Assembly: GCA_010093815.1 (NCBI GenBank)
Contig: ML996571.1
Length of the DNA: 64,000 bases
Strand: one strand, 5' to 3'
Source: Pseudovirgaria hyperparasitica
Lineage: Eukaryota
The notes under the pieces are model-generated. The model searched no databases, was not told the DNA's origin, and saw only the letters and a list, made by a program, of their open reading frames with translations. Of the stretch, positions 50,980 to 63,044 are shown piece by piece. Numbering within the stretch: the stretch's first letter is position 1; every line of letters begins with the position of its first letter. The position numbers were made by a program, and so were the translations under genes.

Positions 50980-51425
50980 ACTGGCCAACCTGGTCAATCG
51001 GTGGATTTTTGTATTCATCACCTTACCCCTTTTCACGACTTATTTTATGAGATCATAGATGGTCAATAGCGCGGCGCCTTGGTGGGTTTATGGACAGTTT
51101 GCTTGTCTTGATTGTAAACGGTCAGAATGGGATTTGGGCTGGACCTGGAGGGTGATCGACTAAAATCGAAGCACAAACATGTATACCCAAGAACTGAAAA
51201 CTTAAACGAATTATGAACAATCGTGGCTTGTCATTGACACCTACGTCCACAGCTCAGTTGAACACTTCAAGGGCTGTACCAACCGCCAAGACATGTCGTC
51301 ATTAGTAGCGACAGGAAGCTTTGACATTCAGGTGCTGAGCGAAAGAGCTTCAACCTCGCCCAAATTATTCTTGTCTCCATAACCGCATCACAACGCTTCC
51401 ATTGTCATTCTCTATTCTTTTCACA

Positions 51426-52586
51426 ATGCTCGCAAGACAGATGTTCCGCCCTATACGGACACTACAGAGTGTAAGTTTAGCGATAAGTGCGCGCACCTCC
51501 ACAGGATAGCTGATGCCTCATATCAGCACGTCCGCCGATACGCGACAGAGCCACCAGCCAGAGGTGGGCCGAGCCCTCTTATGTATGCCGGTATAGCTGC
51601 TGTGGGCGGTGCTGGTGCTTGGTACTACCTTACTGGTAATGCGAAAGAGCAGGTCGCGTCAAAGGTCGACGCTGCGAAAAGTCTTGCGGGCGCCGAATCC
51701 AAGAAAACATTTACAGGTGGCGATCAGGGCTTTATCTCTCTGAAGCTCGAATCAGTCGAAAATGTCAACCACAATACCAAGAAATTTCGGTTTCATCTAC
51801 CAGAAGATGATGCCGTCTCAGGCCTCCATGTCGCTTGTCAGTAACTTTAAACCCTATTACTTGGTCGCACTTGACTGATGATCTTCCAGCTGCGCTCCTC
51901 ACCAAGTACAAAGGTCCAGATATGGAAAAGCCGGTTCTTCGACCTTACACCCCGGTGAGCGATGAAGGTCAGTTCTTGTTCAGTCGCAAACCCCAGCATC
52001 TAACATTGGATCAGACCAGAAGGGATACCTCGATCTTCTCGTCAAGAAATACCCAAACGGTCCTATGTCCGAACATATGCACGATATGGAGCCAGGTCAG
52101 CGACTAGACTTCAAGGGACCTCTGCCAAAGTACCCATGGTCGGTTAACAAACACGAGCATATCGTCCTTATCGCGGGAGGGACCGGCATCACGCCAATGT
52201 ACCAGCTCGTAAGAGCCATTTTTAATAATCCTGAAGATAAGACTAGGGTCTCGTTGATATTTGGCAACATTTCTGAGGAGGACATTCTTCTGAAGAAAGA
52301 ATTCGAGCAGCTTGAAAATCAATACCCACGTCGGTTCCGTGGATTTTATGTCCTTGACAAGCCTTCAGAGAATTGGCAGGGCGGCAAGGGCTTCATCACT
52401 AAAGAACTTGTCAAGACTGTCGCACCTGAACCGAAAGAGGGCGACAAGGTCAAGGTCTTCGTTTGCGGTCCGCCAGGTCTTTACAAAGCGCTTAGTGGTA
52501 CTAAGAAGAGCCCATCAGACCAGGGAGAGCTTGACGGAGTCCTCAAGGAACTTGGGTACAGCAAAGATCAGGTATACAAGTTTTAG
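51426..52586 (+). CDS. MCR1: Mitochondrial NADH-cytochrome b5 reductase
   Basis: Four exons. Presequence [21 protein letters not shown], hydrophobic anchor, [32 protein letters not shown]. Confidence 0.95.
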
Positions 52587-53109
52587 AATAAATTGAATGT
52601 ACAAGCTTAAGATGCCAAAGCTGTCTGCCTACGTTATGGCATAATGCATCGACACGTGGACTTCGAATTTGCAAGAGGCTCGAATCATTGGTATACCATT
52701 AGTCATAGTTGTATTGAGGGGTATCTAGAGACTTCCGTGAGACTAGGACAGCGAATGAGAGCTTTCAAGGGTAGAATTAAGCTCGTTAAGAGGAACATGA
52801 AAGGCGCAAGTCTATTGACTCTGTAATGTTCCATGGATACACAGCATGATATGCTGTTACAGCAAGCGGGTCATTAGGAAGAGTCTGAGAGGGAAGTTCT
52901 TCCACTGTGATAGGCTAGTGATAAGATCCTTTGCCTCTTACCTGCATGTAAGTAATAAAGACTTGATCGTCTGACCCAGCCTGACGAATCTGCAGGTCAA
53001 GCTGACTGGTCAAGGCTTTATATATACCGTTATCAGCCGTCTCGATGGGCTGTGCAAAGGAGTTTCTGACACCAGTGACAGGACACTTCGCACTACTCAT
53101 CCATTACAG

Positions 53110-53427
53110 ATGGCACAAGTTTACCTGAAAGCTGTACGAAGGTACATCGATGGGGCAAGGTTGAAAGCTCTCCTGGACGAGAGATTTCCGAAGAAAGACT
53201 ATTCCATCAAGGTACGTAAGCTGAACCGCCGGGCCGGTGTACCGTCCTTTGAACAAGAACTATCTGACTAATATTGTAGATGCGGAACGGCAAGGTCATA
53301 ATCAACACTCCGGAGGAAGTCACAGATGTAGGCACTCTCATGAAGGTCTAGTCACCACCGAGCTAAACGATCATGCCAGGAAGAAATCGATCGGTTTGCA
53401 CGAACGGATCCAACTACGTCCAACTGA
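53110..53427 (+). CDS. Small three-exon protein A (65 aa), unknown family, paralog of 53707-54014
   Basis: Exons 53110-53211, 53280-53327 and 53380-53427, with two phase-0 GT-AG introns of 68 and 52 nt. Product: MAQVYLKAVRRYIDGARLKALLDERFPKKDYSIK|MRNGKVIINTPEEVTD|EEIDRFARTDPTTSN. Confidence 0.8.
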
Positions 53428-53706
53428 CAAAGAAGAAGAGAGAGGGATCACTGCGCCTCCATGTGTCCTTGCTTGATGGGCAAGAATTTGGCGCAAGCGC
53501 CACTGAAAGCTGTTGTATTGATCAAGGGGCCCCCACCCCTGTCCTGGCTGCATGATGCAGCTACTTGGCGCAGTGCCACGATGCGACAGTGTCCTCTTCC
53601 GCTCGGCCACAATCTTACACCAATTTGCTTGTTATAATCTACTTCTTCCCCAGTTGAGAAACGAACATTCTCGCCCCCATACTCCAAAATTTCAGCGTTG
53701 CCCGCC

Positions 53707-54014
53707 ATGTCTATTCAGCATCAACAGCACCAACAAACGATAGAGGCTCGTTATGTCGATCCACGGAAATTAATCACCTGTCTTGAAAGAAGGTACGAGA
53801 AGGACTTTCAAGTGAAGGTGTGCGATCTGGACCTTCCCACCTGAAAATCATTGTATTGACTTCACTAGCTGCGCATGAATCACTACAGGATATACGCTTC
53901 TCCAGACAAAGGGGTCCTCACCAATGTAGGTCAGTCTCTGGCGAGCCTACATGCCGGCAGCTCACAGAAAGGGTACAGGATGAGATCAGAGCGTGTTCAG
54001 CCTTGTACAGATAG
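53707..54014 (+). CDS. Small three-exon protein B (67 aa), unknown family, paralog of 53110-53427
   Basis: GCCATG context. Exons 53707-53817, 53869-53925 and 53979-54014, with phase-0 introns of 51 and 53 nt. Product: MSIQHQQHQQTIEARYVDPRKLITCLERRYEKDFQVK|LRMNHYRIYASPDKGVLTN|DEIRACSALYR. Confidence 0.8.
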
Positions 54015-54095
54015 TTCCCAGGGAGTAGCAGAGGATTATTACTGCGCTAGAAATTACTTCGCGTCAATGCATATAGAGAAGGCGCGGTGAACACC

Positions 54096-54196
54096 CTTTT
54101 CAAGGTATAGTAACGGACATTAGTCTGGGAGCACTTCACATGAAATTTACCTGAAATGTTCCCAGACTAATGTCCTAGTACTATACTTTGTAAAAG
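54096..54196 (+). repeat. Long imperfect inverted repeat (hairpin)
   Basis: Perfect 16-bp arms GGACATTAGTCTGGGA (54115-54130) and TCCCAGACTAATGTCC (54160-54175). Pairing extends 8 bp inward and 12+ bp outward (54101-54112 with 54179-54190); 13-nt loop. Confidence 0.9.
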
Positions 54197-54615
54197 ACCC
54201 TTCTACTATACAGACTTCCATGGCATCAAAGTTCCAGACACAAGTTTCTGATGGGATCAAAGTTCAAGACACGAGTTTCATGAGTCCACTAACTGTCAGT
54301 ATCAGCTTTGCCAGATACTCAAATTTCCTTATATGTGTATTACTGTCCCGTACAACCTCAGTATCGATATGCCACGGAATCAGCCGGACGTACCTTTTCA
54401 TGGGCCCAATGTCGCTTCAAGGCTCACAGCTCTGTGACGTGTTGCTGTGCTGTTCGCTTATGCAGCTACTTTGGCTTGCATCTAATTGTAATTGGTGCAC
54501 ATCATGCCCCGCTCCAGATATCAGAGCACGGAATGGGAGGGAATGAAGTGTATGTCAAAACCTCAAGGAAAGGAGCATCCCACAGATACTACAACGGCTT
54601 CTGCACGTTCAAACA

Positions 54616-56600
54616 ATGGAAACGCTCACTGGGTTCAGAAATGCTACGTTCCGTGAAACAATTGAAACGATGGCTGGTCGCATCTTTAATAGATCGAATG
54701 ATATGCAAGAGCTGACATACGTGGGGTTTGGAGGACACCTCGAATCAGGGCAAACAGTGTCCCCAAACTTGGAGAATATCCATGATATAAGCCAACTGGA
54801 GGACTTGAATAAGGTGAGTATGAGTCGATGTGGGCATACGCAGACAGAGAATGACCTCTACCTAGGATTGTCCTCGCACACGCCTATTCACCATTGGCCA
54901 GCACCGATCGTGGTCGAACTTGAACATCAGTCGAACGATGTTTGAAGCCTTCATACAATCACATGACGTGTTCAACCACATCTGGAGACTTATGATGGTC
55001 CTCGGAATCACGACTGAAAACAATGAACAGAGTTTTCCCGGATTCAAGTGGCAGCAGATGACTCAAGGATCATATGGTAAGTGGGACGTAGGCGAGGACG
55101 TCTGGTTAAGTCTAGCCACGCCCTGGTGTAGATTGACCACTAGAATCATCGCTAGACCGTATTCTGTAATCATTTTTCGCATTAGATGACTGATCGAGGG
55201 CAGAAATTGCATACATTGTTCGACGTGTAGAGTTCACGAATCGTCTTCAAGAACGTTCACCCTGGTCGATCAGACAGAGCGGGGTCTATCAGAACTTTCA
55301 GAATTGTAACTCTAGACTGATGAGTGGTATGACCGATGTACCAGTCTTAGGCCCCACTTTCGAATCGTTGTCCCTGGTCATTGCGCCCTCGAGTGCGACA
55401 AAGTTGATTCTTGCGAATATTGAAAACATGGTCTCTTTTATGGAGGAGATTGATTCGAATCCATGGAACTTACACATCGCTCTTGTCGAAGAAGGTCTCA
55501 GCAACTGGCCTGATTATATGGCCTGGATTGAAACAGAGCTACGTCAACTGGTATGTCACTCACATGGCCATGTCTGTCGATTGACTGGCATGAATCACTT
55601 CTAATCTAAAATATAGAATCTATGCTAATCCAATAAGCTTAACAAAGCAGTCCTGACGGATACTGGCTCTGTGTCTGACACTATGGTCGGAGAGAGTGCG
55701 TCGATAGCTCCCGGCATTGACATAAAAATCAGCTTCAATGATCGTCAAAAGCTACAGGATCTCGAGGACTACATCACGGACCTAAATGCAATGTTCTCTC
55801 TGTCTAGGAGGAACGTAATGGGACTTATGAAGGTCTGTGCAATATCTTGCAAAGCACACCAGCACATATCGATCGGCCTCTGTCAATGCGATGATAAGAT
55901 TGCAGCGATGGGCGAGCAAATCAGCCAGATTGATGCTCTATTGGAATGTACAGTGAACCTGCGCGAGCGAGCGAGGTCCGTCCGAAAGATGGTATGTAGC
56001 TCTCTACTCGAAAAATGACGAACGTTGTTGACTGTAAAAGCTCTCTGATTTGTTGAACTATGAGGATAACAAAGCTTTGGTGTTGCTGGCGGAGCAGTCT
56101 CATCTTGAGAGCCAGGCAATGCATGAACTAACAGTGAGTATCGAATGAGCCCTTACGTACCGGTGTAACCTCACAATGACGTAGAAAAAAAGTACAACAG
56201 ATGCAGCAGCCATGAAGGCTCTGACCGTCATAAGTCTCATATATCTGCCAACGACAATCGTAGCTGTAAGTCCACGAAAGATACCTTTCACTTCGGCACT
56301 AACAGTGATTCGAAGAATTTCTTTTCCACTGAATTTATCAAAACGAACGACAATGGTGGTATAGAAATATCAAGAAGCACTTGGCTTCTCGCTGCCATCT
56401 CTGTTCCTCTTACACTCTTCACTATCGCTCTGTGGATCTTGTGGCAGTATTGTACAAAGACCCCGGACCAATACCAACTTCCTTTGTACCATGGACCAGA
56501 TCGTGGCAGTGGAGATGGTAAGGTTGAACTACGCCGCAGGACCACAGAGCCGATCTTGAGCAAGGTGAGGAATTGGACGATGTCTCCCGAACCGACCTAA
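54616..56600 (+). CDS. Fungal CorA-like domain protein with two C-terminal TM helices, lacking the GMN motif
   Basis: Seven exons (54616-54813, 54866-55076, 55204-55550, 55638-55991, 56041-56133, 56185-56265, ~56317-56600). Motifs: SWSNLNISRTMF, EIAYIVRRVE..R...SPWSIRQSGVYQ, coiled stalk, STTDAAAMKALTVISLIYLPTTIVA|NFFSTEF, second TM WLLAAISVPLTLFTIALWILW. Confidence 0.8.
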
Positions 56601-57253
56601 CAACACCTTGAAAAGACGGAATGATGCCTGCTGGAGACAATGACAGACTTAGGTGCATGACAAGCTATACGATCTCGGCTAGACTGGTTTGCATGGATGT
56701 CCAGGACCTAGATATGAGTGGTTGAACCACCCCCTACTGCATCAATGCAAGCCCAGCACATCAGCAGCCCCCCATAGCCTTTCCCTCGTCTATAACCCCA
56801 CCTACTATTCATTACGAATGAGGGGCCGCACCTGACCCCCTCTCAATACAGGCTTGGACTGTCGGGCTCTATGCAGTTTGCCTGATACCCTTCTGAGGGA
56901 TCAAATCGAGTCATCAGTTCCAATCTCCACGTCTGCCTTGTCTTGACCGGTCGCGAGCTTGAATTTGGATTGGCTCCACTCCATGTTCCCTGCCACATCT
57001 ACCAATATAAGACAGAGAAAAAGCTGTTGCCTATCTCACGCACCACTGACTAGTCCTTCACTCCTTTACTCCCAGTTTATCTACAAGAGCCGCACCGTAC
57101 CGCGTATCGGTCACCAAACTCCTGTCTTTGAGTTGCACTGTCATATTCTTAGAGCTAGAATTGCTGTTGTCAACCTTAGACGATATAATTCGTCTCATAT
57201 TTCTATTCTCTTCCAACCATTGTGAATAAATAAGCCACTTGCCCTTACCGACA

Positions 57254-59072
57254 ATGGTCGAATCAGACAGTGAATCAAGCGATGTCGATATTGCAGAGAA
57301 ACTACGAGAGCTTATTGGAGAAGCAGAACAATCATCAGATAATGAGGGTTGGGGCTACTATGTTCCGATTTCAGAACAGAGATCAATAATTACCGCAGAA
57401 CGAGTGTTTCTGCACGTGCGCAGCTTGAAGAAAAGGGGAACCACTGATTTAGTCACGAGATATACAGAGCAGATCTGTACCACAGCAATATCGTTGTTCG
57501 CGACTCTTCTCCGTGGCAAAAAGGACAGTGAAATTTGCAATCTTCTGGACGATGGGCTGTCGGACAGAGACTTGCCACTGGTAAGGACTCCAGTGAGTAA
57601 TAGGATCGGCGAGAAGAAATTTTGTCTAGCCCGGAATGATGAAGCAAAAACGACCGTGGAAGCAATGAGAAGATGGGCACAGTCAGATCTGAAAGACTTC
57701 GGACAATATCAATTCAGGATGCTTGCACCAGTTTTTGATAGGTATAAGCCAAAAGGACAGCTATCAAATGACACGATCTTGCCATATGTGTGGGATGATC
57801 AAGATCACAGACCTGTTGAGAACGATAGAGGCGGCTACAGTGAGGTGGTGAAGCGCCGACTACATCCCTCTCATCACAATTTTTGGGAGGAGGAATCGCA
57901 GGAGGTGAGCGTTTAGCTCAAGGCGCAGCTGCTGCAAATAAGGCTAACATACCTGTAGCCGCGTCGAAGGTACGTGGCTGTCAAAAGATTGAACTCTGGA
58001 GACCTTCAAGAATTCGAAAAGGAAGTGAGCATCTTGCGAAAATTGGGAGTCCGCAAAAATGCCCACTTGGTACAGCTTCTGGACACCTTCACTTTCAGGG
58101 GCCAACCACATCTCATGTTCCACTGGGCTGATGCAAATCTTCGCCAATATTGGGAAACAAAAGAGCACCCCAAATTCGACCAAAGCACAGTCTTGTGGTC
58201 TTTGCAGCAAATGAAAGGTATCGCGCAAGCCTTATCACTAATACATAACTATACTACTCATCCTACCCTTCCCCTATCTGATAGGCTCGATCACCAGAAC
58301 GAGAGGCTAGGAGTAATTGACCATGAAAAGCACTTTGGACGCCACGGCGATATCAAACCAGAGAACTTCTTGTGGTTTTCAGATCTAGATGGAGGGGTCT
58401 TGCAGATTGCAGATTTCGGTGAGTGCTTCCTTTCACGCTGATCCTTGTTCGGTGCTCTAGCTAAGCATCTCAGGCATGGGAAGATTCCACGGTCGCGATT
58501 CCCGCTCAAAAGTCCGCCCGACGACCGCCCAAGCTACCCCAACTTATGAGCCTCCAGAATGTGCGCTGCGAATAGCAGTGTCCCGAAAGTATGATACTTG
58601 GAGTCTCGGATGTGTTTTTATGGAGTATATTACCTGGCTCATACTCGGTAATCAGGCCACGGAGGACTTTGCCGAAGCCCGTAGCAAGATGAATTCCCTT
58701 AAAATCGACGATGACAAGTTTTATGAGATAGTCCATCGTAATGGGGACACGAAGGCCATTGTGACCATCGGTGTCGAGAAATGGGCATCGAAACTCCGCA
58801 AGAACAAACGCTGCTCACAAGCTATCCATGATCTGATCGATATAATTATGGAGAGCATGCTAGTCATCGATCAAACCAAGAGGCTAACATCCCGACAGCT
58901 CTTTCTAGAGCTCAAAGAAATCGTTGCAAGATCCACGGAGGACCAGGGGTACCTATTGGATGCTCCACGTTTGAACCTACCAAACAGGCAAATACTTGGC
59001 GCATCAGATGGGCCCGAATATAGGTTGAATGGTACTAGACAGACGAATACTTGGCCAATCAATGGATCCTGA
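57254..59072 (+). CDS. Ser/Thr protein kinase of a fungal-expanded type with an N-terminal helical domain
   Basis: Introns 57905-57958 and 58419-58473. Motifs: RGGYSEV, VAVK, EFEKEV, RHGDIKPENFL, IADFG|MG, TPTYEPPE, DTWSLG. All catalytic residues are present. Confidence 0.9.
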
Positions 59073-61252
59073 ATATAGGCCACTCAGGGTCATGGTATCC
59101 TGTTATTGGAACCGGCGTTACAGACAGATGTATCAAAAGTCTAGAGGCGCTGTGATGAGTTAGCATTTCGTTCGTGTACGACTTGGGTCCTGTATGTTGT
59201 GAGCACTTGTTACATTTATTTCATCTCTGGACTTGGATATCACCGCTACTGCTGTCTGCAAGCGAGGACAAAGATGCTGCCGGAGAACATATGCAACAGG
59301 GACTATACTATGGAGAGCCACAGAGAATAATCTGATTGTACATTAGTGATATGTACAACCATCAAGAGCAACCGGTAGTGAAACAGAAAGGATCGTTGTG
59401 TCGAATACATACCTAGATAAGCAATACTCAAATGTTATGTAGGAAGTTGATTGAGAAGATACAGACACGTAGGTTAGGCGTTGACCCTGTATAACTAGCG
59501 TGTATTTATGCTTAAGTCCCAAGGACTCTACGGATCGCTGACCTTTGCACTTCGCATGTATGAAGAAAGAAGGGTGATGAGCTAGACATTTGCGGTAGTC
59601 TCGAATTCCTCGGCATTTAGTTGAGCAGCGCGCCATCAATGGTTCGACGCTATCTGCTGGACATGTATCGGCATCCAGTGCGCCGGCATACACAGGCCGA
59701 AAGCTGATGTATGCCAATGAAGAAGAAGAGAATACTTTTCGAAATATTGGTGAGCTAGAAATAATAAGGACTTAACTTACGTTACGATGTGGTTCGTTCT
59801 ATCGACGATCTGGTGGTATTCTTGCGTCAAACATGGGAACTACTAGTACGAATTATAGAGCTCCATAGCGTCAATACACTGGGAAGGCGATAGTCATGTA
59901 GGGTTTAAAAACCTAGACCAAAGTGTAATTAGTTTGGCCAGAGCATAAGTACTCTCTAGAAGGGAGTGGACAGGCATGGCATAATACGCGTCTAGCAAAG
60001 AGAACGTTGACAATTCATTTAGAATGGAGGCAAAAATTGATAAAAACACATCTCCCAACCCTGAATCGAACAGGGGACATTCTGATAACAATTGCTATTA
60101 CAGTCAGACGCCATGAACCAACTAGACCATTGGGAGGTTAGGGCATGTTTGGCTCATGTTTCAAAGAATATTTTCCCGGAAAGAGGGGCACATTCTGTGA
60201 AATTCTTCGAATTTCCGTGCGCCTTCGGCTGTCAGGCTATCGAGCCCCACTTTGCTAGGTCTAATGTCTATAGATTATCTAAGCCTTCTTACAATGAATC
60301 GAGCCAATCACGTCCAACGACAACAAATATGATATAGAACAGTCTTTGCTAAGACCCACTTTTGTTGGGTTGACTTCTTCACTTTCATCTGCCCCCTTAA
60401 GCACATGACTCCTTATATTAACAACGTGGTATGACTGCGTCTGGAAACGTTCGTGTGTTACGGTCATCAGAAAGAACATTCGCAATCCAGTCTCAGCCCC
60501 CGATCTTTCCAACCAGCAATGCGTGATGAAAGTTTCTTTGCAGTCTGTTTCCTCATGCATGCTGGGCCTGTCAGTCGCCTTAGTGCATTCCAGTATTTCC
60601 AGCTCATCACTTCCTGTCAGCGGATCACGGATGTGGTATGCGACAGTGCGCTGCTTGCGGTTCTAATCTGCCGACCATTTGTCACAGAACACGTACTTGA
60701 AGGCGAAGAAATTTGAGGATGGATTGCCTAAATCGAGTATATAGCTTCGAAGTAGATATATTAGACTTATTTATATAGAACTACTAGAAGTTAGGTACGT
60801 AAATATCAAAATAGATGCTTTAAGTCGTGCTTGAATCACATGGTTAGATAATCGACCACATAACTTTGTATACTCATCTTTAGAACTATTAAGGGAAGCG
60901 CTGCTAAGTGAATGTTATTCTATCACTATTCTATTACGTCAGGGGTAAACGGTATAGCTCCGTTTAGCTATCTATATTAGAATAGTAAATTGCGAAATGC
61001 TGCCACGGACTTTTCGTATTCGAGCACTCCATTCAAGCTATGGCAAGTTTATGTCTACATTGCTCCATTATAGACATAAATGCAAGAGACGCGCCGGCAT
61101 ACGAACATGTGTTTTTTATTCATCTATCTCTTGAGCATGTTGCGTGAAGCTCATATGTCAGCGCGATTATTGATCATGCTCGATATCGCGCAACCAAATG
61201 GCGTGCGAATGCAGAGTCAAGCTTGCGCAATAACGCCCAAAGCTCCTTCTAA

Positions 61253-63044
<1,792 letters not shown>

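Follow-up and report, generated by a model that had tools for sequence, protein, structure and literature searches.

A conserved four-gene cassette of two microproteins, a CorA-like membrane protein and a protein kinase in ascomycete fungi

Two microprotein genes (A and B), a gene for a CorA-like membrane protein (C) and a protein kinase gene (D) form one conserved, co-inherited cassette in many ascomycete fungi. We estimate a probability of about 0.5 that this cassette encodes a CorA-superfamily membrane channel together with its own regulators, as a regulated complex. The window analysed here is a stretch of 64,000 nucleotides from Pseudovirgaria hyperparasitica, in which the module A-B-C-D covers positions 53110-59072 of the plus strand. 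The genes of the module and its flanks are:

51383-52586, plus strand, MCR1-like NADH-cytochrome b5 reductase gene, upstream flank outside the module, three introns confirmed
53110-53211, 53280-53327 and 53380-53427, plus strand, exons of microprotein gene A (type 1), 65 aa, model built from the sequence
53707-53817, 53869-53925 and 53979-54014, plus strand, exons of microprotein gene B (type 2), 67 aa
54616-56600, plus strand, gene C, CorA-like membrane protein, 522 aa, seven exons (54616-54813, 54866-55076, 55204-55550, 55638-55991, 56041-56133, 56185-56265 and 56316-56600)
57254-57904, 57959-58418 and 58474-59072, plus strand, exons of gene D, Ser/Thr-type protein kinase, 569 aa
61506-62889, minus strand, GH1 glycosidase gene, downstream flank outside the module, Pfam Glyco_hydro_1 in two ORF pieces

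All four genes are real, transcribed and spliced. Contigs of two public runs, X1 and X2, skip 12 of the 12 module introns at GT..AG, as well as all introns (3/3) of the upstream MCR1-like gene. Both A introns are skipped in X1 and in X2, and for B intron 1 a skipping contig is present in X1 only. Because introns of the genome are missing from these contigs, both runs were taken to be RNA. The earlier note had described four co-oriented genes with gaps of about 280, 600 and 650 nt, and the spliced contigs confirm this layout, with coding gaps of 279 nt (A/B), 601 nt (B/C) and 653 nt (C/D). The flanking genes had been named correctly too, as MCR1 and GH1: Pfam NAD_binding_1 and FAD_binding_6 (reductase-type domains at 51966-52583) were found upstream, and Glyco_hydro_1 downstream. 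Protein C is letter-for-letter the public protein P0001 (EJ05DRAFT_500092) and B is identical to P0165 (EJ05DRAFT_500091). For A, no identical or similar protein was found in the searched public collection, and the gene is unannotated in this genome.

When searching for related loci, the same gene kinds were found side by side in other fungi. The sample consisted of 79 fungal metagenome loci in 43 distinct groups, which were found with the CorA-like protein and counted per contig. A/B-family genes lie 0.7-3.4 kb upstream of the C-like gene in 17 of the 21 groups with enough flank, where an A/B gene had to be within 4.5 kb on every contig whose upstream flank reaches 2.5 kb or more; the type profiles used for this count were built from the same loci, which makes it partly circular. 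With a first profile, for which only the window's own A and B and the N-terminus of the C relative P0052 were used, the count was 14/21. Downstream, 11 of 16 groups have a D-like kinase (E≤1.1e-27, within 6 kb) at 1-3.5 kb from the C-like gene; its strand is the same in 10 groups, and the N-terminal domain of D was matched in 8. Eight groups carry a small gene, a C-like gene and a D-like kinase together on a single contig. The earlier note had suggested checking whether homologues of the module genes co-localise in other fungi, and for the small genes and the kinase they do.

The small-gene matches are also specific in position. All rows of matches to the small-gene profile at E≤0.01 (31/31) fall 950-3300 nt upstream of the C-like match, and 55 of the 56 matches to the type profiles fall within an upstream interval that makes up 27% of the sequence. 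Type-1 (A-like) relatives are found upstream of C-like genes in other loci, and both small-gene types occur in the window's order and strand in loci L008, L023, L031 and L043. In L019 and L022 the pair is inverted relative to C, yet its internal order is kept. No fifth conserved ORF recurs across the related loci, and the window's flanking genes, including the MCR1-like and GH1 genes, have no homologue in the 79 loci. The parts of the cassette are separable, because some loci contain C and D but no small gene within 10 kb (L024/L025 and L035) and others contain C without a strong D (L029, L061, L074 and L078).

In named genomes, the locus tags of B-type and C-type genes directly follow one another, as seen in Oculimacula yallundae (6237/6238), Rasamsonia byssochlamydoides (4354/4355) and the genome studied here (500091/500092). 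In addition, a C-like part is followed by a D-like part within one gene model in 5 of the 150 listed C-family representatives (E 7e-14 to 3e-82), those of Aspergillus unguis, A. nanangensis, Hymenoscyphus albidus, Lambiella insularis and Cudoniella acicularis; if these are annotation errors, they indicate adjacency only.

Between classes of filamentous ascomycetes, little gene order is preserved. The gene sets known to stay together belong to metabolic clusters, mating loci or cell-death pairs, and the cassette contains none of their known components. That four genes are kept together in changing neighbourhoods points to strong selection for co-inheritance. No paper describing this cassette was found in a search of openly available articles. 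The cassette provides a testable partner set for the very large, uncharacterised fungal 'CorA-like transporter domain' family and contributes a new family of microproteins. It may turn out to represent either a new mode of channel regulation or a new cell-death executioner.

Protein C belongs to a family of 1447 cluster representatives (50% identity clusters, E≤1e-3), and among the matches listed it shows no more than 41% identity to another representative. P0001 carries the precomputed label PF26616 and the UniRef name 'CorA-like transporter domain-containing'. PF26616 was not among the matches of our local Pfam scan, in which the whole protein gave nothing at E≤0.1, and Pfam CorA (PF01544) scored 15.4 bits on the exon-6 piece only (cut-off 27). 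Two relatives, P0052 and P0128, pass this cut-off with 29.9 and 40.8 bits. The profile of family alignment A1 (32 sequences) matched the PDB at E 0.002, and the best seven matches are all CorA chains. The relevant features of C are:

55260-55277, plus strand, P-W-S-I-R-Q motif, residues 156-161, in the cytoplasmic domain (sequence reading)
56221-56336, plus strand, first membrane helix and loop entry, split by the intron at 56266-56315
56325-56333, plus strand, S-T-E in the place of CorA's G-M-N (A1 profile alignment)
56382-56450, plus strand, second hydrophobic helix, residues 451-473 (sequence reading)

Two C-terminal membrane helices were predicted by eye from hydrophobic stretches at residues 413-431 and 451-473, both of which are conserved in A1, including W451, P459, L460 and T461 of the second helix. 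The best conserved N-terminal stretch of the family is P-W-S-I-R-Q, in which W157, S158, R160 and Q161 are conserved to at least 90% in A1. These profile comparisons relate the C family to CorA over the stretch of the first membrane helix. After this helix the G-M-N motif is absent from C: the family's F-F-S-T-x-F stands opposite I-Y-G-M-N-F of Thermotoga CorA. The serine, S432, is conserved to 90% or more in A1, and P0052 retains G-M-D. Hence, the earlier description of C as a CorA-like protein lacking G-M-N agrees with both the profile match and the alignment. Since S-T-E is found where CorA has its Mg2+-selectivity motif, C is probably not a classical Mg2+ channel. Compared to the CorA/ZntB/Mrs2/Alr1 channels (PF01544), C shares the C-terminal hydrophobic helix pair, the large cytoplasmic N-terminal part and sequence similarity before and through the first helix. 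It differs in having S-T-E (S-T-Q in relatives) instead of G-M-N, and its N-terminal part has motifs of its own and no detectable sequence similarity to CorA. C is also accompanied by a kinase gene and a pair of small genes, a linkage that is not known for such channels.

Sequence comparison identifies A and B as paralogues, with a pairwise E of 4e-6, 35% identity across 46 aa and matching positions of both introns, and they represent two conserved types of one new small-protein family. Its members are 55-80 aa long, often overlooked by annotation, and without a Pfam match. In the B alignment A4 (26 sequences) 11 columns are invariant, one of them a Cys, and the metal-binding Cys pair is absent from B. 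An AlphaFold2 model of B predicts a beta-alpha-beta-beta-alpha arrangement (mean pLDDT 78). The comparison of this model with known folds covered the ferredoxin-like small domains HMA, RRM, ACT and the secretin ring-building type; the best Foldseek E was 0.39 and the best VIA Z 5.9, under the tool's stated background of 7-8. P0052, a C-family member from a Sarea resinae MAG, has an A/B-like domain at its own N-terminus (E 9.5e-5 among the 150 listed C-family sequences; runner-up 0.33), which most simply suggests a physical association of A/B with C.

The features of the kinase D are:

57254-57904, plus strand, N-terminal domain, 217 aa, exon 1, confined to this kinase family
57563-57577, plus strand, conserved D-x-D-L-P motif of the N-terminal domain
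57710-57736, plus strand, conserved Q..P-V-F motif of the N-terminal domain
57830-57847, plus strand, glycine-rich loop G-G-Y-S-E-V
57983-57985, plus strand, catalytic Lys of V-A-V-K (sequence reading)
58343-58366, plus strand, H-G-D...N loop (sequence reading)
58412-58418 and 58474-58475, plus strand, D-F-G, straddling an intron (sequence reading)

Pfam Pkinase (PF00069; cut-off 31.7) scored above its cut-off on the exon-3 piece of D (34.4 bits) and below it on the exon-2 piece (25.8 bits). As read at residue level, D is catalytically intact, with the Lys, H-x-D, Asn and D-F-G all in place. These residues are kept in the kinase parts of the relatives P0042, P0032, P0086 and P0050, with the exception of D-L-G in P0042 and P0032. 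The N-terminal domain matches no Pfam family and no PDB family, and its single-sequence fold was unusable (pLDDT 34). Invariant columns of this domain in alignment A5 (9 sequences) are D104, L107, P108, Q153, P159, F161, G193, G194 and V198.

From these features we infer how a regulated channel complex would work. C would form an oligomeric two-helix channel, as CorA does, and A and B, as small soluble alpha/beta proteins, would attach to C at its cytoplasmic domain and serve as accessory or gating subunits. The kinase D may switch the channel complex via phosphorylation. The output would be physiological and non-lethal, for instance ion flux or stress signalling. Against this reading, protein C itself stays below the Pfam CorA cut-off, and the parts of the cassette are separable. 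In addition, a four-gene order kept across fungal classes while the neighbourhood changes is unusual for an ordinary transport function, and such co-retention fits modules with parts that are harmful if inherited singly.

Several known systems combine a membrane effector with linked regulators. Some type III CRISPR systems use a CorA-family protein as membrane effector, with dedicated partner genes. Those effectors are prokaryotic and driven by a nucleotide signal, whereas the module belongs to a eukaryote and combines its membrane protein with a kinase and microproteins, for which no homology to the CRISPR partners was found. According to PMC12881547, RIPK3-MLKL necroptosis and fungal HeLo/HeLo-like systems combine a kinase with a membrane-acting executioner, in fungi as two- or three-gene clusters, and fungal gasdermin-protease pairs are tightly linked sets of effector and regulator in ascomycetes. 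The module resembles the former in having a kinase beside a membrane protein. However, it has no HeLo, four-helix-bundle, amyloid-motif or NLR component, and C appears to be an integral two-helix CorA-like protein. Gasdermin-protease pairs differ in their unrelated families and proteolytic activation. A CorA-domain protein of a filamentous ascomycete, mimpvic32 of Morchella importuna (765-773 aa), is one of two vegetative-incompatibility candidates in PMC8940278, where its tie to non-self recognition comes from bulk-segregant mapping only.

Other explanations for the cassette were weighed against the channel complex. Since the same gene kinds adjoin again in independent loci, the linkage is not due to chance. 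That the genes are functionally unlinked neighbours out of large families is hardly credible: these fungi do have large families of both CorA-like proteins and kinases, but the adjacency is repeated across independent loci and named genomes, which contradicts such an explanation. Co-regulation without a complex, with shared promoters or read-through transcripts serving one pathway whose proteins do not touch, seems unlikely. Unbroken RNA-type contigs do extend to the far side of D, starting at B or as far upstream as the MCR1-like gene, although such gene-spanning contigs do not demonstrate single transcripts. The merged C+D models of five genomes fit read-through transcription, and the order kept within inverted small-gene pairs is consistent with co-regulation; the A/B-like domain of P0052, on the other hand, argues for physical contact. 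A selfish poison-antidote or mobile unit, whose partial loss would be harmful and which would change its genomic site, is very improbable. The flanks are indeed unconserved, and some related contigs are alike in the module only: L078/L079 have 2.3 kb in common (small gene and C-like gene, 93%) with unrelated sequence on either side, and in L074/L077, L032/L041 and L035/L039 all similarity ends just upstream of the module, although the compared contigs are possibly from different species or paralogous copies. Moreover, no transposase, recombinase or repeat was found among the conserved ORFs of the related loci, and the module is old and lies among housekeeping genes here.

The earlier note had suggested that the module may be an undescribed signalling or non-self/cell-death system. 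Synteny, locus tags and merged models uphold one conserved unit, whereas the non-self or cell-death role gained no direct support. In such a cell-death or defence cassette, C would be a CorA-derived permeabilising executioner, which A and B inhibit and D triggers on a danger or non-self signal; we regard this as possible but tentative. Doubtful is an ancient immune or death cassette, mobile as a unit, with a CorA-derived pore executioner that two ferredoxin-like proteins shut and a dedicated kinase opens. If the cell-death reading is true, the module would be a eukaryotic counterpart of prokaryotic CorA-type defence effectors, and C would join HeLo, gasdermin and patatin as a fourth kind of executioner of fungal cell death. 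It is favoured by the tight four-gene linkage in changing genomic contexts, by the size and fast divergence of the C family, by the CRISPR effectors and by the mapped Morchella candidate. C-type identities are also out of step with taxonomy (Rasamsonia vs Lepidopterella 46%, two Helotiales 39%), and the small gene is present or missing between the near relatives L039 and L035. However, no HET, NACHT/NB-ARC, HeLo, gasdermin or patatin domain was found in the four proteins or the window ORFs, nor a protease domain in or beside the module. A CorA-type effector is missing from a review on regulated cell death in fungi published in 2025, in the main text of which 'cora' as a word start is found only in 'corals'. 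All four genes are present in RNA-type contigs of a culture, and the B-type is strongly conserved, as seen from its invariant columns. Classical allorecognition loci would show a drop in identity between related contigs, whereas the related metagenome contigs are 94-100% identical over the module, with no dip there. Rapid allelic turnover is also at odds with the C-type proteins, whose identity between sister species exceeds 90%, both among three species of Botrytis and among four of Aspergillus.

Four co-oriented, closely set genes had been claimed between a cytochrome-b5-reductase type gene and a GH1 gene. The genes were borne out by intron-exon models made from window positions 52900-59300 and the flanks by Pfam domains, and the gaps between the coding regions (279, 601 and 653 nt) agree with those in the earlier note. 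The upstream flank is MCR1-like (51383-52586, + strand) and the GH1 gene lies downstream (61506-62889, - strand).

Gene models of the module
53110-53427, + strand: A, microprotein gene, 65 aa, 3 exons
53707-54014, + strand: B, microprotein gene, 67 aa, 3 exons
54616-56600, + strand: C, CorA-like membrane protein gene, 522 aa, 7 exons
57254-59072, + strand: D, Ser/Thr protein kinase gene, 569 aa, 3 exons

All 12 introns of A to D are skipped at GT..AG by contigs from two public sequencing runs, X1 and X2, as are three introns of the upstream reductase gene; skipping of the first intron of B was seen in X1 only. The kind of run is absent from the run record, but since the genome has introns and the contigs are without them, we infer that both runs are RNA. 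One spliced X1 contig (10,323 nt) covers the MCR1-like gene and all four module genes without a break (window 51000-59939), and an X2 contig extends from the last exon of B through D. Because the contigs are unbroken across genes, all intergenic stretches are transcribed; overlapping UTRs and read-through transcripts look alike in such contigs. Depth of the X2 contig was 2177, 19550 and 3104 in bins over 53106-54158 (A and B) against about 400-640 over C and D, values that are unfit for ranking genes. Beyond the stop codon of D (59073-60030), RNA-type contigs extend for another 870-960 nt or so, intronless, after which the depth falls; a long 3' UTR would explain this stretch, as would an unannotated transcript. 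A 142-codon open frame on its - strand (59343-59771) gave no Pfam match.

C and B are identical to the public P. hyperparasitica proteins EJ05DRAFT_500092 and EJ05DRAFT_500091, respectively. When the first exon of A, read through into the intron, was used as query, no counterpart was found in the searched protein collection, and A is therefore an unannotated gene. Its first exon also had no usable match in the Atlas. A and B are paralogues, with 35% identity over 46 aa and matching intron positions.

A scan of 1.84 billion cluster representatives with C returned 1447 relatives at E<=1e-3, of which 44 reached E<=1e-30, with identities of at most 41% among the matches listed. The 30 relatives with a species name all belong to the Pezizomycotina. 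We take their classes to be Leotiomycetes, Eurotiomycetes, Dothideomycetes, Lecanoromycetes and Geoglossomycetes, plus Sarea, with Sordariomycetes at 0/30. In an alignment of 32 family members, P-W-S-I-R-Q stands out as a conserved motif of the N-terminal part, and a second conserved block extends into the first helix of a hydrophobic C-terminal pair. In a comparison of the alignment profile with the PDB, the seven best matches, at E 0.002, were all to Thermotoga CorA or variants of it. Similarity is confined to the block entering the first helix, where S-T-(E/Q) stands opposite G-M-N. The Pfam cut-off for CorA is passed by two relatives, with C itself below it. Because of the profile match and these two relatives, the description of C as CorA-like without GMN appears right at the level of the superfamily. 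Among the relatives, P0128 (1044 aa) has its CorA-like part joined to DUF1688, and P0120 (1118 aa), besides the part matching C, shows similarity to CorA close to the C-terminus. The Rutstroemia relative P0020 (508 aa) is named 'cmgc cdk kinase protein' in its source, a name perhaps carried over from a neighbouring gene.

D matches Pkinase, and the catalytic Lys, the H-G-D...N loop and D-F-G are all present. Its relatives keep the same residues, except for D-L-G in two of them (P0042 and P0032). The kinase is preceded by an N-terminal domain of 217 residues, in which D-x-D-L-P and Q...P-V-F are invariant across nine sequences. The profile of this domain found no relative in the PDB (best E 0.079) and none in Pfam, and a fold predicted from the single sequence was unusable (pLDDT 34).

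To describe the small genes, spliced forms were enumerated by a script, which reproduced the RNA-verified A and B exactly. The resulting proteins form one family of three types. Type 1 (A-like) always has a middle exon of 48 nt, type 2 (B-like) is the most conserved, and type 3 is a single gene upstream of more distant C-like genes. All begin with R-Y-(I/V/L)-D, followed by a Leu-rich helix that closes with Phe/Tyr, a hairpin containing an aromatic residue, P-x-x-L-(T/S) and a short acidic helix, usually with a Cys after it. Searching the protein collection with an alignment of first-exon pieces only, we obtained 110 small proteins (97 at E<=1e-3), comprising 100 of type 2, eight of type 3 and two of type 1. 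About 30 of the 110 are properly spliced annotations whose second and third exon parts match our reconstructions. As those parts were absent from the query, the agreement is independent support for the reconstructions. Many of the remaining proteins are unspliced ORF calls from metagenomes. Pfam domains were found in 0 of the 110, and in a scan of 26 B-type proteins no match was better than E 0.04. A model of B, built with 26 relatives, has a beta-alpha-beta-beta-alpha order (mean pLDDT 78); fold searches with it gave nothing above background, the matches being generic ferredoxin-like domains.

We also considered whether A and B are like the segment with which C-family proteins in general begin. 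This was rejected, as the profile of that segment matches neither, and among C relatives the small domain occurs in P0052 only. A metallochaperone role like that of the HMA domain was dropped, there being one conserved Cys only and no significant fold match. For the conserved Thr/Ser before the last helix of A and B (25 of 26 aligned B-type sequences) we make no claim of a phosphosite, since this position is expected for a helix cap.

The claim of a module was checked by co-localisation in other fungi, as the earlier note had proposed, and is supported, with C-like genes found beside small genes and a D-like kinase in independent loci. Using an alignment of eight C relatives, the 32-sequence alignment being too diverse, we recovered 79 loci with fungal-type introns from metagenome contigs (numbered with L below). 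Clustering at >=90% identity gives 43 groups, each of which may mix paralogues or different species. A tblastn search of these loci with D found D-like kinases downstream, 1-3.5 kb from the C-like gene. In per-contig counts, 11 of the 16 groups whose downstream flank reaches 2.5 kb or more had such a kinase at E<=1.1e-27; ten have both genes on one strand, and in L038 the kinase is inverted. The N-terminal domain was matched in eight of these 11. Three more groups had a weak match to the kinase domain only, on the opposite strand, and two had kinase matches upstream only.

For the small genes, a first profile, to which only the window's A and B and the N-terminus of P0052 contributed, was run over 24,534 six-frame pieces. 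All rows at E<=0.01 (31/31) sit 950-3300 nt upstream of the C-like match, a positional result that is free of circularity, and small genes were detected in 14 of the 21 groups whose upstream flank is long enough. Type-specific profiles, partly circular as they were built from the same loci, raised this to 17/21, and 55 of their 56 matches lie inside an upstream interval that makes up 27% of the sequence. A small gene, a C-like and a D-like gene share one contig in eight groups (L008, L019, L023, L031, L042-46, L050, L052 and L058). In four of them (L008, L023, L031 and L043) both small-gene types are found, in the order and on the strand seen in the window. The small-gene pair is inverted as a block in L019 and L022. 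L024/L025 and L035 have C and D with no small gene within 10 kb, and L061 is without both a small gene and a strong D. L038 is a further variant: about 2-2.8 kb upstream it has another C-like copy, its D is inverted, and a type-2 gene separates C from D. Across the 79 loci no other ORF recurs, and the window's four flanking genes occur in none of them.

In named genomes, B-type and C-type genes carry consecutive locus tags, on contigs of equal length, in Oculimacula yallundae, Rasamsonia byssochlamydoides and the window genome, and in Amylocarpus encephaloides the two proteins are encoded on contigs of the same size. Among the 150 listed C relatives there are five long gene models with a D-like part behind the C-like part; the N-terminal domain of D is included in four and partial in the fifth. 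These models may be true fusions or merged neighbours, and under either reading C comes before D. The distant C relative P0052, from a Sarea resinae MAG, starts with a type-3-like domain at its N-terminus, a hint that the small proteins may act on the cytoplasmic side of C.

The reading of the four genes as one module is supported. As its most likely mechanism (probability about 0.5) we propose that C would be a CorA-derived channel, with two small proteins as accessory partners and a kinase of its own. The earlier note had suggested that the module may be a signalling or non-self/cell-death system; the cell-death reading we regard as improbable. An allorecognition-type locus is disfavoured by sister species with C proteins more than 90% identical, by identity over the module that is not lost between related contigs, and by a search of the module and the window for known death and recognition domains, in which none was found. 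Other features speak for a role beyond ordinary transport. The cassette persists in changing contexts, similarity of related contigs often ends at the module edge (L078 and L079 share only 2.3 kb), identities of C depart from taxonomy, and the presence of small genes varies. In Morchella, mapping has made a CorA-domain protein, which may be unrelated to the C family, a candidate for vegetative incompatibility (PMC8940278). No description of the cassette or its motifs was found in openly accessible article texts, passages of a 2025 review included.

In several pairs of loci a small gene and a C-like gene are 90-99% identical and one or both flanks are unlike (L078:8792-11089/L079:8542-10834, L074/L077, L032/L041 and L035/L039). 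The unit may be present at different sites, as paralogues or by movement. L035 has no small gene upstream, and its near relative L039 has two. The flanks of the module in the window are housekeeping genes, with CDC20 and Kelch-BTB genes upstream beyond the reductase gene. Positions 1-51000 have an ordinary housekeeping look, with genes for a PAF acetylhydrolase, a class II aminoacyl-tRNA synthetase, threonine synthase, a bZIP protein, a 2OG-Fe(II) oxygenase, an FAD-binding oxidase and a senescence-domain protein in addition to CDC20 and the Kelch-BTB protein.
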